48,506 bases of DNA from Eubacteriales bacterium (GTDB lineage: Bacteria > Bacillota > Clostridia > Oscillospirales > SIG627): contig JAZOVP010000010.1 in the NCBI GenBank assembly GCA_045658765.1, positions 1 to 48,506 on the forward strand, written 5' to 3'. Both the position numbers and the translations under genes were made by a program. Below are positions 22,371-28,403 of the stretch, piece after piece. Within the stretch, counting starts at the first letter, position 1. Every line of letters starts with the position of its first letter. The notes beneath the pieces were generated by a model that saw nothing but the letters and a program-made list of their open reading frames with translations, did not search any database and was not told where the DNA came from.

Positions 22371-22437
22371 AGCATAGCACGATTTGGGCAAAAAGTCAAT
22401 GAAATCGGTTGAAAAAAAAGCGGCTTTGTGATATACT
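22371..22437. promoter_or_regulatory. Back-to-back sigma-A promoters (DUF1934 and topB operon)
   Basis: Minus strand: TTGACT-17-TATGCT (22399-22371). Plus strand: TTGAAA-17-(TGn)TATACT (22409-22437). Confidence 0.6.
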
Positions 22438-22473: not shown

Positions 22474-24567
22474 ATGATCCTCATCATCGCAGAAAAACCC
22501 TCTCTTGCGCGCAATATCGCTTCTGCAATCGGCTCCTTCCAAAAAAGAAAAGGGTATTTGGAGGGGCAGGATTATCTGATCACCTGGGCATTCGGCCATC
22601 TCTTTTCCCTTTGCGATATTGAAGATTATACCGGCAAAACCGAAAGCGGCAAGTGGAGCATGGAAAATTTGCCGTGCTTTCCCGAAGAATTTCGCTTCTC
22701 GCTCAAGCACGATAAAGAAGGCAAGGTGGATGCGGGAGTGCGCGAGCAATTTGAAACGGTAAAAGCCCTCTGCCACCGCGAAGATGTTTTGTCCATCGTG
22801 AATGCGGGCGACGCGGATCGCGAGGGTGAAATCATCGTGCGCCTGATTTTAAAGCATGCGGGCGAAGTGAATAAGCCCCTTTTGCGCCTTTGGCTCCCCG
22901 ATCAAACTCCCGAAACCGTGCGAAGCGCGCTTTCCGATCTTTTGCCCGAAGAAAATTATGATCTTCTCGCCTCCGAGGGCTTTGCCCGCACTTATATCGA
23001 TTGGCTCTACGGTGTGAACCTCACCCGCTTTGCCACCTTAAAAAGCGGCACCCTCCTGCGCGTGGGCAGAGTGATCGTGCCGATTGTGAAAGCCATTTAC
23101 GATCGCGATATGGCAATCGAAAATTTCAAGCCCGAAATCTATTATGCCGTTTGCGGCAAAACCGAAGGCGAAGACGGGGTGGAAGTGCAGAGCAAAAAGA
23201 AATTTTCGGCCGCAGAAAAAGAAAAAGCCGAAAAGTATGCCGCCCTTCTGAAAGCCCAAACCTGCACCGTCAAAAGCAAAAAAAGCAAAAAAGATAAATT
23301 AAATCCGGGCAAACTCTATTCCCTTTCCAAGCTCCAAAACGCCCTCGGAAAAAAATATAAAATGCCGATGGACGATTCGATTCGCATTGTGCAATCCCTT
23401 TATGAAAAAGGGTATCTCACCTATCCCCGCACCAATTCCGAATATCTTGCCACCGCCGAGAAAGATAAAATGAAAACCATCATCAAAAATCTTTCCGAAA
23501 TCGGCTATCCCGTGGAATTCAAAGATAAAAAAACCATTTTCGACGATAGCAAAATCGAATCCCATTCCGCCCTCACCCCCACCTTCAAAATTCCCGCCAA
23601 GGAAGCGCTTTCCGAGGAAGAAAAGAAGGTTTATCAAATGGTGCTTCGCCGCTTCGTTGCCGTTTTCTGCTCGGAAGAGTGCCTCTGCCAAAAAACCGAG
23701 CTTGTGATCGCGGCGGGCGAGGTGGAAGAATTCACTTTAAAGGGCACGGTGATTCTGGAGAAGGGCTGGACCCGCTTCGACGATGCCACCCGAAACGATA
23801 AAATCCTTCCCGATTTCAAGGAAGGCGATGCCGTGCCGATGGAATTTTCGGTGAAAGAAAAAGAAACCACTCCCCCCAAGCACTATACCATCGAAACCTT
23901 GAATAATTATCTGAAAAACCCCTTCCGCGAAGAAAAGCAAAAAGCCGATGACGAAGAAATCGACGATGCGGAAGAATACCGCGCCATGTTTGAAGGGCTC
24001 GAGCTCGGCACCGAAGCCACCCGCACGGGCATCATTGAAAATGCGCGAAACTCAAAGTATATTCAGCTCAAAAAAGATGTGTATACCATTCTGCCCGATG
24101 GCAAATATTTAATCGAGCAGCTTTCCCTGATGGGAATTTCCATGGATAAATATAAAACCGCCACCACCGGCAAAGCCCTCAAGCAGGTTTTCCGCGGCAA
24201 CATCGGCATTTCGGATGCCGTTGGCATTGCGAAAGAAGAAATTTTATCCGTTTTCGATTCGGGAAAAGAAGGATCGCAATCCGATATCGGCTTTTTTGGC
24301 GATGCCGTTGGCACCTGCCCCCTTTGCGGGAATGAGGTGGTGAAAGGAAAATATTCCTATGGCTGTCGCGGCTATAAAGAAGGGTGCAAATTCCGCATCA
24401 ATCTTTCCATCTGCTCGCGCGCCATCCCCATCCACCAAGCAAGAAAGCTCCTTTCGGAAGGCAAAACCGATCTGATCGAGGGCTTTGTTTCCCCCCGCAC
24501 GGGAAATTTTTTCTCCGCCTGTCTTCGTCTGGAAAACGGAAAAGCCGTTTTTGATTTTTCCAAATAG
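22474..24567 (+). CDS. topB: Type IA DNA topoisomerase (topoisomerase III)
   Basis: IAEKPS, DADREGE, active-site TYPRT, LGTEATR, C-terminal CPLCG..YGC..CKF repeat. Confidence 0.9.
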   Translation: MILIIAEKPSLARNIASAIGSFQKRKGYLEGQDYLITWAFGHLFSLCDIEDYTGKTESGKWSMENLPCFPEEFRFSLKHDKEGKVDAGVREQFETVKALCHREDVLSIVNAGDADREGEIIVRLILKHAGEVNKPLLRLWLPDQTPETVRSALSDLLPEENYDLLASEGFARTYIDWLYGVNLTRFATLKSGTLLRVGRVIVPIVKAIYDRDMAIENFKPEIYYAVCGKTEGEDGVEVQSKKKFSAAEKEKAEKYAALLKAQTCTVKSKKSKKDKLNPGKLYSLSKLQNALGKKYKMPMDDSIRIVQSLYEKGYLTYPRTNSEYLATAEKDKMKTIIKNLSEIGYPVEFKDKKTIFDDSKIESHSALTPTFKIPAKEALSEEEKKVYQMVLRRFVAVFCSEECLCQKTELVIAAGEVEEFTLKGTVILEKGWTRFDDATRNDKILPDFKEGDAVPMEFSVKEKETTPPKHYTIETLNNYLKNPFREEKQKADDEEIDDAEEYRAMFEGLELGTEATRTGIIENARNSKYIQLKKDVYTILPDGKYLIEQLSLMGISMDKYKTATTGKALKQVFRGNIGISDAVGIAKEEILSVFDSGKEGSQSDIGFFGDAVGTCPLCGNEVVKGKYSYGCRGYKEGCKFRINLSICSRAIPIHQARKLLSEGKTDLIEGFVSPRTGNFFSACLRLENGKAVFDFSK

Positions 24568-24579
24568 AAAGGATTTTTT

Positions 24580-25692
24580 ATGATTTATTTTGATAATTCC
24601 GCCTCCTCCCCTCTTTCCGAAGAGGCAAAAAAGGCGCTGTTTGCCGAAGCGGAATTGTTTGCCAATCCCTCGTCGCTCCATTCCCTTGGCTTTGAATCTG
24701 AAAAAAGAATGAAAAAAGCGCGGGAAGAAGTGGCAAAATCCCTCGGCGCTCTTCCCGAGGAAATCATTTTCACCTCGGGCGGCACCGAAGCCGATAACCT
24801 TGCCATTTTCGGCGCGGCGCGCAAAATGCGCCGCCGAGGCAAAAAAATCCTCTCCTCCGATTCCGAGCATCCCGCAGTGGAAAAATGCCTTCAGGAACTC
24901 GAAAAAGAGGGCTTTGAAGTGGTGCGCCTTTCCACCAAAGGCGGTGCCCTCTCGCTCAAAGAAATCGAAACCGCAGCCGATGAAACCACCATTCTTGCCG
25001 CCGTGATGCACACAAACAACGAAACCGGCGCCGTTTACGATATTGCCTCCCTTTCCCGCATTGTCAAACAAAAAAATCCAGAAGCCATCGTGTTTTCCGA
25101 TTTGGTGCAAGGGTATTTAAAAACCCCGCTTTCCCCCAAAGCGCTCGGGCTTGATTTGGCAAGTCTTTCTTCCCATAAAATCAATGGCCCCAAGGGAGTG
25201 GGTGCGCTCTATATCAGAAAAGGGCTGAATCTTCCCCCCGTCCTCTTCGGCGGCGGGCAAGAAAAAGGGCTTCGCTCGGGCACGGAAAATCTTCTTGGAA
25301 TCGCTTCCTTCGGCACCGCCGCGCGCCTTGGATGCGAAAACCTTGCAGAAAATATAAAAAAAATGAATTCCATCCGCGAATTCATTTTAAAACATCTTGC
25401 CGATCATCCGAAGATTCATTTCAATCTCCCGCAAAATCCCTCCTGCCATATTTTATCTATGCAGGTGGAAGGTTTTCGAAGCGAAGTTTTGCTTCATTCC
25501 CTCTCGGCAAAAAATATTTTCATCTCCTCGGGCAGTGCCTGCTCCTCTCATAGCGGCAAAAGCCCCGTGCTCAAAAATTTCGGGCTCAATCCCAAAGAAG
25601 CAGATTCCACCGTTCGGCTTTCCTTCTCTCCGCTCAATACCATAGAAGAAGCTCAGGAATTCTGCCAAGTTTTGAAAGATATGGTAAAGTAA
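24580..25692 (+). CDS. iscS: Cysteine desulfurase (IscS/NifZ-like, ThiI-associated)
   Basis: YFDNSA, TSGGTEADN, PLP-binding SSHK, catalytic SSGSACSS. Confidence 0.92.
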   Translation: MIYFDNSASSPLSEEAKKALFAEAELFANPSSLHSLGFESEKRMKKAREEVAKSLGALPEEIIFTSGGTEADNLAIFGAARKMRRRGKKILSSDSEHPAVEKCLQELEKEGFEVVRLSTKGGALSLKEIETAADETTILAAVMHTNNETGAVYDIASLSRIVKQKNPEAIVFSDLVQGYLKTPLSPKALGLDLASLSSHKINGPKGVGALYIRKGLNLPPVLFGGGQEKGLRSGTENLLGIASFGTAARLGCENLAENIKKMNSIREFILKHLADHPKIHFNLPQNPSCHILSMQVEGFRSEVLLHSLSAKNIFISSGSACSSHSGKSPVLKNFGLNPKEADSTVRLSFSPLNTIEEAQEFCQVLKDMVK

Positions 25693-25693
25693 T

Positions 25694-26875
25694 ATGGAAA
25701 AAAGATCAATCCTCTTAAAGTATGGCGAGCTCATCTTAAAAGGTGCCAATAAAAGCTATTTCGATGCCATGCTCTTAAAGCAAATCCGCAGAAAACTCGC
25801 ACCCCTCGGGGAATTTCACGTGTTTTCTTCGCAGTCCACCGTGTTTGTGGAATCTGAAGACGATGCCTTGCTGGATCTTGCGCTTCCCGAAGTGCAAAAG
25901 GTGTTTGGCATTGTGAGCGTTTCCATTGCGTGGCGCGTGGAAAAAAATATGCCCGCCATTTTGGAAGCGGTGAAAGAAAAAATCGCCCCCACCCTCATCG
26001 GAGCCAAAAGCTTTAAAGCCGATGCCCGAAGAAGCGATAAAAAATTCCCTTTCAAATCGCCCGAAATCAGCCGTGAGGTTGGCGGGGTCATTCTTTCCAC
26101 CTTAAAGAAAAATGCCCCCAAGGTGGATGTTCATCATCCCGAAGAGGTGGTTTGGGTGGAAATCCGCGAAGATTTTGCCTATGTTCACTCCAAAAAGCTC
26201 CCCGGCGCGGGCGGTATGCCCTATGGCACCTCGGGCAGAGCCCTGCTTCTTCTTTCGGGCGGAATCGATTCCCCCGTGGCGGGATTCCGCATGGCAAAGC
26301 GCGGCGCTTTTATCGATGCGCTCCATTTTGAATCCTTCCCCTATACCTCCGAACGAGCCAAAGAAAAAGTGGTGGATCTTGCCAGAAAGCTCTGCGAATA
26401 TACCGATACCATCAATTTCGCTTCCATTCGTATGACCGAAATTCAGCTTCAAATGCAAGAAAACTGCCGCGAAGAATATTTCACCATCCTTCTTCGCCGC
26501 AGTATGATGCGCCTTGCCTGCCGCGTGGCAGAAAGGCAAAAATGCGGTGCTCTTGTAACCGGCGAAAGCTTGGGTCAGGTGGCAAGCCAAACCATGCACG
26601 CCCTCCACTGCACCGACCATGCCTCCACCCTTCCCATTTTCCGCCCCTTAATCGGAATGGATAAGGAAGAAATCGTGCGCACCAGCCGCGAAATCGATTG
26701 CTTTGAAACCTCGATTCTGCCCTTCGAAGATTGCTGCACCGTGTTTACCCCTCGTCATCCCAAGCTCAATCCCAAAATCGAAGAGGTGCTCGAGGAAGAA
26801 GCCAAAATCGATTTTCCCGCACTGGAAGAAAAAGCATTCTCCGAGATTGAATTTTTCCGCGTAGATCGCGCATAA
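25694..26875 (+). CDS. thiI: tRNA 4-thiouridine(8) synthase
   Basis: THUMP domain, PP-loop SGGIDS, GESLGQVASQT, EDCCTVF. No rhodanese domain. Confidence 0.97.
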   Translation: MEKRSILLKYGELILKGANKSYFDAMLLKQIRRKLAPLGEFHVFSSQSTVFVESEDDALLDLALPEVQKVFGIVSVSIAWRVEKNMPAILEAVKEKIAPTLIGAKSFKADARRSDKKFPFKSPEISREVGGVILSTLKKNAPKVDVHHPEEVVWVEIREDFAYVHSKKLPGAGGMPYGTSGRALLLLSGGIDSPVAGFRMAKRGAFIDALHFESFPYTSERAKEKVVDLARKLCEYTDTINFASIRMTEIQLQMQENCREEYFTILLRRSMMRLACRVAERQKCGALVTGESLGQVASQTMHALHCTDHASTLPIFRPLIGMDKEEIVRTSREIDCFETSILPFEDCCTVFTPRHPKLNPKIEEVLEEEAKIDFPALEEKAFSEIEFFRVDRA

Positions 26876-26887
26876 GAAAGGAAAAAA

Positions 26888-28357
26888 ATGAAAAAGCAAA
26901 GCGTGTTTTCCGCCCTGATCAAAACATTGGGATATGTGCTTCTTTTTTGGGGCGCGCAAATTGCCGCCTCCCTTCTTTCCGAGCTTGTGATTTTATTCCG
27001 CGCAGGCATGGAAGGAGTCAGTTCGGGCGCGATCATCCACCAAAGCATTCAAACCGCGCTGTATTCCGTAACCTATGAAATGATGTTTCTTTCCGCCATT
27101 CTTTTTGCCGCGATCGTGCATCTGATTCATAAAGGAAAAGCGTTTTCCCCTTTCAAGCCCAAAAATCTTTCCGCCAAAGCCGTTTTCGGGGTGATTCTGC
27201 TCGGATTCGGATGCTTTTGGCTTGCCAATCAGCTCATCTCGCTCTCCTCGCTCATTCCCGCAGTGAGAACTTCGCAAAATGAATATATGGATCAGCACGA
27301 AGCAATCCTCCAAGCAGGCACCTCCTTTCTTTTCGAACTGCTCTATACCTGCATCGGCGCGCCCATCATCGAAGAGTGGCTTTGCCGCGGGCTCATTCAA
27401 AACACCCTCAAAAAAAGCATGCGCCCCGCCTTTGCAATTCTTCTTTCGGGAATTCTTTTCTCCCTGATCCACGGCAATCTTTATCAGATCGTGTTCACCC
27501 TTCCGCTGGGCATCCTTCTTTCCTTCCTCGCCCATCGCTTCGGCACGATTTTGCCCTCGGTTCTTTTGCACTCCGCCTTTAATTTTGCAAATTATCCCGT
27601 GCGGCTCGGGCTTTATCTTGGCTATTCCGAAAACGATACCGCCACCCTCTTTCTCGCCTTTGCCGCCATGCTCTTTTATGCCCTGTCGCTCCCGCTCGGC
27701 ATGATTCTCATTCGTCGGGCACTGCCCAAAACCAAAGGGCAAGAAAATAAAATCCAATCCGAAGGAGATTCTATGGCTTCCCCCGAATTTATGATCGTGG
27801 GTCTTGGCAACCCCGATGCCAAATATCAAAAAAATCGCCACAACTGCGGATTTTTGGCAATCGATGCCATTGCAGAAAATGCTTCCGCCCCCATCCGCAA
27901 TCTTCGCTTTTCCGCACTCACGGGCGAGGCGATGATCGGCGGAAAGAAAGTGCTTCTTTTAAAACCGCAAACCTATATGAACCTTTCGGGAAAAGCGGTT
28001 TCGGAAGCCGCCCGATTCTATAAAATCCCGCCCGAAAAAATTCTTGTTTTGTTTGACGATATCAGCTTCGCCCCCGGCATTTTCCGCATCCGCGCCTCGG
28101 GCTCCGCAGGCGGGCACAACGGAATCAAAAGCATCATCTCTTCCCTTTCTTCCGATGCCTTCCCGCGCGTGAAAATCGGGGTGGGAAATCCCCCCGAGGG
28201 ATGGGAGCTGATGAATTGGGTGCTCGGCAATCCTTCCGCGGAAGACGAAGCCAAAATCCGCGCCACCTTCTCCGATGTGGTGAAAACCGCAGAGCTTTTT
28301 GTGGATGGCAAAATTGATCTTGCCGCCCAAAGCTTCAACGGAAAAATGCACGGATAA
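26888..28357 (+). CDS. pth: Fusion of CPBP (CAAX/Abi) intramembrane metalloprotease and peptidyl-tRNA hydrolase
   Basis: aa 1-~280 are hydrophobic with EEWLCRG, FSLIH and HSAFN. aa 296-489 are Pth with VGLGNP, NRHNCGF, KPQTYMNLSG and GGHNGIKS. No stop codon between them. Confidence 0.9.
   Translation: MKKQSVFSALIKTLGYVLLFWGAQIAASLLSELVILFRAGMEGVSSGAIIHQSIQTALYSVTYEMMFLSAILFAAIVHLIHKGKAFSPFKPKNLSAKAVFGVILLGFGCFWLANQLISLSSLIPAVRTSQNEYMDQHEAILQAGTSFLFELLYTCIGAPIIEEWLCRGLIQNTLKKSMRPAFAILLSGILFSLIHGNLYQIVFTLPLGILLSFLAHRFGTILPSVLLHSAFNFANYPVRLGLYLGYSENDTATLFLAFAAMLFYALSLPLGMILIRRALPKTKGQENKIQSEGDSMASPEFMIVGLGNPDAKYQKNRHNCGFLAIDAIAENASAPIRNLRFSALTGEAMIGGKKVLLLKPQTYMNLSGKAVSEAARFYKIPPEKILVLFDDISFAPGIFRIRASGSAGGHNGIKSIISSLSSDAFPRVKIGVGNPPEGWELMNWVLGNPSAEDEAKIRATFSDVVKTAELFVDGKIDLAAQSFNGKMHG
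27773..28357 (+). CDS. pth: Probable in-frame internal start producing stand-alone Pth (194 aa)
   Basis: AAGGAG (27762-27767) lies 5 nt before an in-frame ATG that begins MASPEFMIVGLGNP, the normal Pth N-terminus position. Confidence 0.7.
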   Translation: MASPEFMIVGLGNPDAKYQKNRHNCGFLAIDAIAENASAPIRNLRFSALTGEAMIGGKKVLLLKPQTYMNLSGKAVSEAARFYKIPPEKILVLFDDISFAPGIFRIRASGSAGGHNGIKSIISSLSSDAFPRVKIGVGNPPEGWELMNWVLGNPSAEDEAKIRATFSDVVKTAELFVDGKIDLAAQSFNGKMHG

Positions 28358-28367
28358 ATAAAAAATG

Positions 28368-28403
28368 AAACAACCTCGGCTATTTTGCCGAGGTTGTTTT
28401 TTT
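28368..28403 (+). terminator. Terminator, palindrome family copy 5
   Basis: AAACAACCTCGGC-tatttt-GCCGAGGTTGTTT followed by a T tract. Confidence 0.8.

Follow-up and report, generated by a model that had tools for sequence, protein, structure and literature searches.

How does a bacterium come to keep peptidyl-tRNA hydrolase (Pth), an enzyme essential to most bacteria and regarded as a small, free protein of the cytoplasm, as one half of a membrane protease, and does it still make the enzyme in free form? These questions are raised by a gene in the window, by which we mean the whole stretch of 48,506 nucleotides (nt) analyzed here (contig JAZOVP010000010.1 of assembly GCA_045658765.1, Eubacteriales bacterium). 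The list of open reading frames (ORFs) of the window gives a single plus-strand ORF at 26888..28357 with an ATG start and a product of 489 amino acids (aa), which runs from a CPBP intramembrane protease domain through a short linker into a complete Pth1. We propose that two products are made from this gene, a membrane-tethered CPBP-Pth and free Pth, and give this reading, drawn from sequence comparison, a probability of roughly 0.6. The finding is limited to one uncultured genus of Clostridia, called g1 below, and the evidence is comparative.

Architecture, spread and origin of the fusion gene

That the ORF joins a CPBP protease to a full Pth1, as the preliminary description had it, is borne out by the profile matches and the retained catalytic residues. 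The Rce1-like Pfam profile PF02517 matches aa 146-233 (E 1.5e-20, 73.7 bits against a cut-off of 22.4), and PF01195 (Pept_tRNA_hydro) matches aa 302-484 over its full length, 1-183 of 183 profile positions (E 1.6e-63, 214.3 bits against a cut-off of 27); the NCBIfam model TIGR00447 pth scores 185.1 bits against a cut-off of 100. All three elements of the CPBP motif set, EExxxR, FxxxH and HxxxN/D, are present in the 489-aa fusion, together with the Pth motif contexts, namely the Asn of GLGNP, the His of RHN, the Asn of MNLSG, the Asp of FDD and the His-Asn of GHNG. Seven Pth residues, N308, H318, N365, D390, D391, H410 and N411, are invariant among 43 aligned fused proteins; from motif context we take these to be the catalytic and substrate-binding positions, equivalent to those that the preliminary description gave in E. 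coli numbering. The fusion gene is genuine, and both of its domains look catalytically intact. One correction to the preliminary description concerns the protease class: CPBP enzymes, which it had called metalloproteases, are labelled glutamic-type intramembrane proteases in NCBIfam. None of the named CPBP subfamilies of NCBIfam reached its cut-off (MroQ 25.0 against 270, MrtS 39.3 against 130, MrtJ 38.8 against 75, LnsB 16.4 against 240 and ABC_perm_CPBP 82.8 against 435).

The window genome (1.5 Mb in 198 contigs, a fragmented metagenome-type assembly, 83% complete) has one Pth1 match, the fusion itself, and no PTH2 match was found in the genome search at that completeness. Comparison across g1 demonstrates that this state is conserved. 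Exactly one Pth match was found in 18 of 20 g1 genomes, with a match in all 8 high-quality genomes, and the single Pth of those 18 lies inside an open frame of 493-566 aa, except in two cases cut by contig ends; as for the two genomes without a match, one has its contig end just past the CPBP part and the other is 85% complete. The CPBP part was found in 18 of the 19 other g1 genomes in the family sample of 51 genomes, 15 times in an open frame of 493-566 aa and three times cut by a contig end. In the order sample (201 genomes, 30 families), full-length matches are confined to g1, and elsewhere the Pth part alone is matched. A second CPBP gene of the window genome, unrelated to the fusion, has an open frame of 324 aa (G000:C142:32204-32461, L057).

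Database searches gave the same spread. The whole-protein search returned PF01195 together with PF02517 in 66 of 86 matches, and these protein clusters, the query included, are 38-66% identical and 416-563 aa long; the architecture search suggested in the preliminary description thus yields 66 clusters. Where a database name is given it reads ‘aminoacyl-tRNA hydrolase [Clostridia bacterium]’, a name under which the protease half in the membrane and the probable second product go unseen. With the CPBP half as query there were 21 strong matches including the query, all of them fused, and the nearest stand-alone CPBP proteins followed at about E 1e-5. A phmmer search of 1.84 billion representatives placed 10 fused proteins and one fragment at the top, followed by stand-alone Pth; all 10 come from the same family, and no second CPBP-Pth lineage was seen when long proteins were scanned, these statements referring to the best 150 of 33,404 matches. 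In other lineages Pth is fused to other partners (P0112, P0139, P0230 and P0186), either an N-terminal CDP-glycerol glycerophosphotransferase (599 aa) or a C-terminal beta-lactamase-like PF00144 domain (465-579 aa); both partners are cell-envelope enzymes.

The comparison with sister genera demonstrates where the fusion came from. In three genomes of two sister genera, thiI, a stand-alone CPBP gene (254-302 aa) and pth are separate consecutive genes. The CPBP gene (254 aa) and pth are 62 nt apart in L052, their ORF ends overlap by 29 nt in L051, and in L053 the CPBP gene at 1471-2328 and pth at 2318-2884 overlap by 11 nt in different frames. thiI is the gene immediately upstream in each of the 16 g1 loci with DNA on that side, as well as in the 3 sister-genus loci. 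The separate but abutting or overlapping thiI-CPBP-pth arrangement of the sister genera therefore indicates a fusion of neighboring genes, and we conclude from these gene orders that a single fusion event, in the ancestor of g1, joined genes which already lay side by side. In other families of the order, none of 19 same-strand ORFs upstream of pth was a CPBP gene; six were GlmU-like hexapeptide proteins, five FakA-like, two Prs, four belonged to other families and two had no family.

The probable internal ribosome-binding site and start codon

The preliminary description had placed an AAGGAG and an in-frame ATG at the Pth boundary, and both are found there (Table 1). By comparison with the sister genera this ATG is the old start of the stand-alone pth. 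Junction DNA was compared in 18 species of g1; the species are related, and the counts that follow are not independent. A Shine-Dalgarno (SD)-like sequence at the spacing of a start site is present in all 18 (AAGGAG in 14, AAGGA in 2, GAGGA and GGAGGA in 1 each), 5 nt from the start in most species and 8 nt in one; 17 species start with ATG and the remaining one with TTG. The predicted SD duplex is strong: in the window gene its energy is -9.3 kcal/mol, stronger than at the primary start, and the mean over species is -8.6 kcal/mol, compared with -7.2 for primary starts (n = 16) and -2.3 for other codon positions. The median at the internal site, -8.85 kcal/mol, is reached by 3% of other codon positions. 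The Gly codon within the internal SD is GGA in 16 of 16 cases, whereas GGA makes up 25% of all Gly codons in these genes, and the codon before it, for Lys, Gln or Glu, ends in A in 16 of 16, as against 53% of the codons for these three residues across the genes. In the alignment of 43 proteins the start column contains M in 36, L in 4 and V in 3, the residues that start codons encode when read internally, and it is followed by Ala, a typical second residue of bacterial proteins, in 40 of 43; the 18 species all have Ala there. Lastly, in each of the 18 species the 40 nt of mRNA around the internal start have less structure than the gene on average (mean -3.8 against -7.7 kcal/mol), with lower G+C content contributing to the difference.

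The most serious competitor to our proposal, one which we nevertheless consider unlikely, would be that only the full-length protein is made and the genus runs on tethered Pth. The AAGGAG-ATG would then be kept because of protein constraint at the domain boundary, or because a translational pause there aids membrane insertion before Pth folds. Internal SD-like sequences do slow elongating ribosomes, the frame is open in all 18 species, so the fused protein matters, and the stretch Ala-Ala/Ser-Pro-Glu that follows the Met is conserved at the protein level. However, neither a pause nor a protein constraint needs a start codon, yet the start column is restricted to M, L or V in all 43 proteins, and the single Leu among the 18 species is encoded by TTG. 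The spacing between SD and start is that of a start site, the low mRNA structure recurs in every species, and the site coincides exactly with the start of the sister genera's stand-alone pth. The fixed synonymous codons at the internal SD also argue against a purely protein-level constraint. These comparisons demonstrate selection on the internal start, which looks to act at the DNA level, and a working internal initiation site is the most economical reading. As for the second, soluble isoform that the preliminary description had derived from this site, the comparison of 18 species favors the working start, and the protein product is something that we infer from it.

The linker frame, predicted membrane topology and the tethered form

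If free Pth were made from the internal start, would the fused protein itself be of any use? The linker, measured from the last transmembrane (TM) helix to the Pth Met, spans 15-90 codons and cannot be aligned between the 18 species; in the protein alignment the linkers of relatives have 19-94 residues with 17% Pro. The preliminary description had pointed to this segment as the place where close relatives might carry a stop or a frameshift. Yet there is no in-frame stop in the 570 linker codons of the 18 species, as against 14 stops in each of the +1 and +2 frames, and every change of linker length preserves the frame. The product of the chances of an open linker frame, calculated from base composition, is about 2e-10, a figure that kinship among the species prevents from being a true probability. 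Because any stop in the linker would merely bring back the two separate genes of the ancestor, and none is seen, these fully turned-over linkers with a never-broken frame demonstrate selection on the frame, which says that the fused protein is useful.

The same observation bears on the possibility, to our minds a rather improbable one, that the fusion is idle, with free Pth supplied from the internal start, the CPBP protease carrying a tolerated Pth passenger and the two activities unrelated. Such a view would fit the well-kept internal start, the disordered and hypervariable linker and the AlphaFold2 model, which has no fixed contact between the domains (predicted template modelling score [pTM] 0.61, mean predicted local distance difference test [pLDDT] 92), and the fusions of Pth to different partners in other lineages show that such fusions arise readily. 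But if a stop in the linker cost nothing, it should be common, yet none is seen and all length changes keep the frame; the adjacency of CPBP and pth genes, older than the fusion, also hints at a functional link.

An artefact of assembly or sequencing, or a recent stop-codon loss in one genome, which the preliminary description had offered as its alternative, can practically be set aside despite the fragmented assembly, since the same in-frame fusion recurs in 15 further complete and 2 contig-cut genes of other g1 species and in 66 protein clusters from several data sources, and since the fusion is as old as the genus, with its frame open through unalignable linkers. Public reads agree as far as they reach. 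In a public DNA run that contained 6% of the sampled words, short contigs match parts of thiI and Pth; one contig of 151 nt spans the SD-ATG junction, matching 27745-27895 with 1 difference, and most of the CPBP part (26786-27715), with all of the linker except its last few codons, is without cover. Of the linker check by reads that the preliminary description had in mind, the junction is thus covered, and the part before it is neither confirmed nor disputed.

An AlphaFold2 run with a 43-sequence alignment (43 of the 66 clusters) gives two confident domains that are predicted to have no fixed mutual position, with pLDDT about 90-97 in the Pth domain. Eight membrane spans are modelled at aa 6-41, 62-80, 96-120, 147-175, 180-194, 198-218, 222-243 and 251-278, and two further helices, 48-60 and 124-142, lie in acidic loops. 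Averaged over the family, loops rich in Lys and Arg (K+R) alternate with loops rich in Asp and Glu (D+E): K+R and D+E number 2.1 and 0.2 at the N-terminus, 1.0 and 2.9 in loop 41-62, 4.2 and 1.0 in loop 82-99, 0.7 and 3.6 in loop 125-149, 3.5 and 0.2 in loop 167-180, and 3.2 and 3.2 in the segment after TM8. The N-terminus and the segment past TM8 are basic. Because of the positive-inside rule, we infer that both ends are inside and that Pth faces the cytoplasm, where its substrate is; the cytoplasmic C-terminus on which the preliminary description depended is thus what hydropathy, charge and the model of eight TM helices all predict. When the whole 489-aa model was used for a fold search, the Pth domain matched S. 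aureus Pth 4yly_B with Z 30.3 (root-mean-square deviation [rmsd] 1.4 Å over 189 residues, 37% identity) and 8axp_A with Z 28.0.

Several considerations weigh against the proposal of two products or against its premises. The 18 species are related, and probabilities calculated over them are no true P values. The conserved Gly-Asp/Glu-x-Met-Ala-Ala-Pro-Glu stretch could partly reflect protein constraint. Scanning for promoters gave no convincing site immediately before the internal start, although the scan was a simple one and an internal promoter is possible, and the search of public runs for the window sequence listed no RNA run. The membrane domain, aa 4-285, has as its best fold matches SpdC (6u0o_A, Z 10.7, 201 residues aligned, rmsd 5.2) and MmRce1 (4cad_C, Z 9.1, 192 residues, rmsd 5.1), the two CPBP-fold entries in the list of matches, but Z 9.1-10.7 is within the chance range of helical bundles, the safe level being about Z 13; membership of the CPBP family is therefore founded on the Pfam score and the motifs. 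A sequence search of the PDB with the family profile gave only Pth and CRS2 chains and no CPBP chain at E up to 0.01. At 83% completeness of the window genome, a second Pth could have been missed. Finally, P0122 is a CPBP-only protein of 296 aa, 39% identical over aa 1-281 and encoded on a contig of 1460 nt; ending a few residues past TM8, it is either a fragment or a member with a linker stop.

With these points in mind, our proposal of two products can be put as follows. A CPBP gene and the pth that followed it, already abutting or overlapping downstream of thiI, merged into one frame in the ancestor of the genus. The full-length product would be a membrane protein of eight TM helices with both ends inside and an intact-looking glutamic-protease site, whose flexible linker would keep a complete Pth1 close to the membrane on its cytoplasmic side. 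The old ribosome-binding site (RBS) and start of pth survive in the linker, and ribosomes probably also initiate there, giving a free Pth of 194 residues. The genus would then have two pools of its sole Pth, a soluble one for general recycling of peptidyl-tRNA and a tethered one physically coupled to the protease.

The purpose of the tethered form is a matter of speculation. One conceivable purpose, to which we attach a low probability, is disposal, close to the membrane, of aborted nascent chains of membrane proteins. When synthesis aborts by drop-off, or by ribosome splitting with tailing by RqcH, Pth would release the peptide from its tRNA at the membrane surface, the glutamic intramembrane protease to which it is joined would then clip the half-inserted hydrophobic chain, and the free isoform would handle ordinary cytoplasmic peptidyl-tRNA. 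If true, such a disposal unit would be the first bacterial system to couple peptidyl-tRNA hydrolysis to intramembrane proteolysis. Irrespective of this, a whole genus keeps its only Pth joined to an active-looking intramembrane protease, apparently with a route to the free form. The locus offers a readable natural gene fusion in which the ancestral start has been kept as an internal start, illustrating how overlapping neighbors may turn into a unit of dual translation. It may also give a functional lead for an orphan CPBP protease by way of peptidyl-tRNA and nascent chains, as Pth is now tied to ribosome-associated quality control (RQC).

Genomic setting and comparison with known systems

The fusion gene is the last of a tight run, cysteine desulfurase-thiI-CPBP-pth, with intergenic gaps of 1 and 12 nt, and a terminator graded strong lies just 3' of its stop (Table 1), in agreement with the preliminary description, which had it end an operon with the cysteine desulfurase-thiI pair. 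The gene for a type IA topoisomerase ends 12 nt 5' of the cysteine desulfurase gene and may head the same transcription unit; the promoter scan gave a promoter-like site with an extended -10 element at 22409-22437. When loci L033-L050 are compared with window positions 25694-28357, ThiI is 67-86% identical, the CPBP part 31-50% and the whole fusion 38-66%; judged by these identities, the fusion gene is evolving much faster than its operon neighbor thiI.

Table 1. Positions in the window of the parts of the fusion gene, its translation signals and the neighboring genes
Feature	Position	Strand	Basis or remark
CPBP / Rce1-like intramembrane protease domain, aa 1-282	26888..27733	+	PF02517, hydropathy and charge, AlphaFold2 helices (pLDDT mostly >90); 8 predicted TM helices
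CPBP motif 1 EEWLCR, aa 162-167	27371..27388	+	E162, E163 and R167 invariant in 43 aligned fused proteins
CPBP motif 2 FSLIH, aa 191-195	27458..27472	+	F191 and H195 invariant in 43 aligned fused proteins
CPBP motif 3 HSAFN, aa 228-232	27569..27583	+	H228 and N232 invariant in 43 aligned fused proteins
Predicted cytoplasmic linker, aa 277-295, about 19 residues	27716..27772	+	basic at start, disordered; pLDDT <50 for aa 283-296
Pth1 domain, aa 296-489, 194 aa, and stop codon	27773..28357	+	PF01195, TIGR00447, structural match to S. aureus Pth
Primary RBS AAAGGA and primary ATG (26888-26890)	26877..26890	+	sequence; duplex -5.9 kcal/mol
Internal Shine-Dalgarno GAAGGAG (AAGGAG 27762-27767), 5 nt before internal ATG	27761..27767	+	SD kept in 18/18 species
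Internal in-frame start ATG, codon 296 (M296), at domain boundary	27773..27775	+	start kept in 18/18 species
Type IA topoisomerase, 697 aa, C-terminal Toprim_Crpt zinc-ribbon repeat	22474..24567		Pfam
Class-V aminotransferase / cysteine desulfurase, 370 aa, first of tRNA-thiolation pair	24580..25692	+	PF00266, E 3.6e-67
thiI, 393 aa	25694..26875	+	PF02568, E 6.9e-67, with THUMP and ThiI_fer
Two-way intrinsic terminator, perfect 14-bp stem, T runs on both strands	28367..28400	.	between fusion gene and convergent ddl

Neither the two domains nor the principle of internal initiation is new. In the literature searched, which takes in few subscription journals, we found no membrane-bound or protease-fused bacterial Pth, no paper combining peptidyl-tRNA hydrolase with CPBP, and no published account of the combination, of its having become the sole, fixed Pth of a genus or of the route to it from overlapping genes. 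In eukaryotes, Pth2/PTRH2 is anchored to the mitochondrial outer membrane, and has the unrelated PTH2 fold. The stand-alone Pth1 enzymes (S. aureus Pth, 4yly; B. subtilis SpoVC) share with the Pth of the fusion the full profile, the fold, all family-invariant residues and the status of sole copy. The difference is that the Pth of the fusion makes up the C-terminal domain of a membrane protein of 489 aa, whereas in the order's other families pth stands on its own, following glmU-like, prs or fakA-like genes.

The CPBP half is tied to the CPBP / Rce1-like proteases, among them MmRce1 and SpdC, by its three motifs and its Pfam score above cut-off, and its eight predicted membrane helices are as many as are predicted for SpdC. 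SpdC is not known to have intact catalytic motifs, while those of the fusion are intact. SpdC is predicted to have 8 TM segments (PMC5854430) and is described as holding a soluble hydrolase, SagB, at the membrane (PDB 6u0o). In contrast to SpdC-SagB, the partner hydrolase here is covalently joined and predicted to be cytoplasmic, and its substrate would be peptidyl-tRNA.

For Pth itself, the RQC pathway of B. subtilis provides the closest functional setting: according to Svetlov et al., cited in PMC11317155, Pth is reported to free nascent chains with Ala tails from the 50S subunits of this species. An RqcH-like gene is present in the window genome, and this is a pathway into which a tethered Pth could plug, the only tie of the fusion to RQC being the shared enzyme.

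The presumed mode of expression has its parallel in E. coli arcB. An in-frame internal start at a domain boundary of this membrane-anchored kinase yields a diffusible C-terminal domain, ArcB-C, as Ribo-RET and western blot demonstrated, and orthologues keep the site (10.1101/520783). An SD-like sequence, an in-frame start exactly at the domain boundary and conservation of the site are common to the two systems. ArcB-C has been seen as a protein, whereas the second product of the fusion is predicted from sequence comparison. The fusion differs further in that its internal start is inherited from a formerly separate, essential gene.

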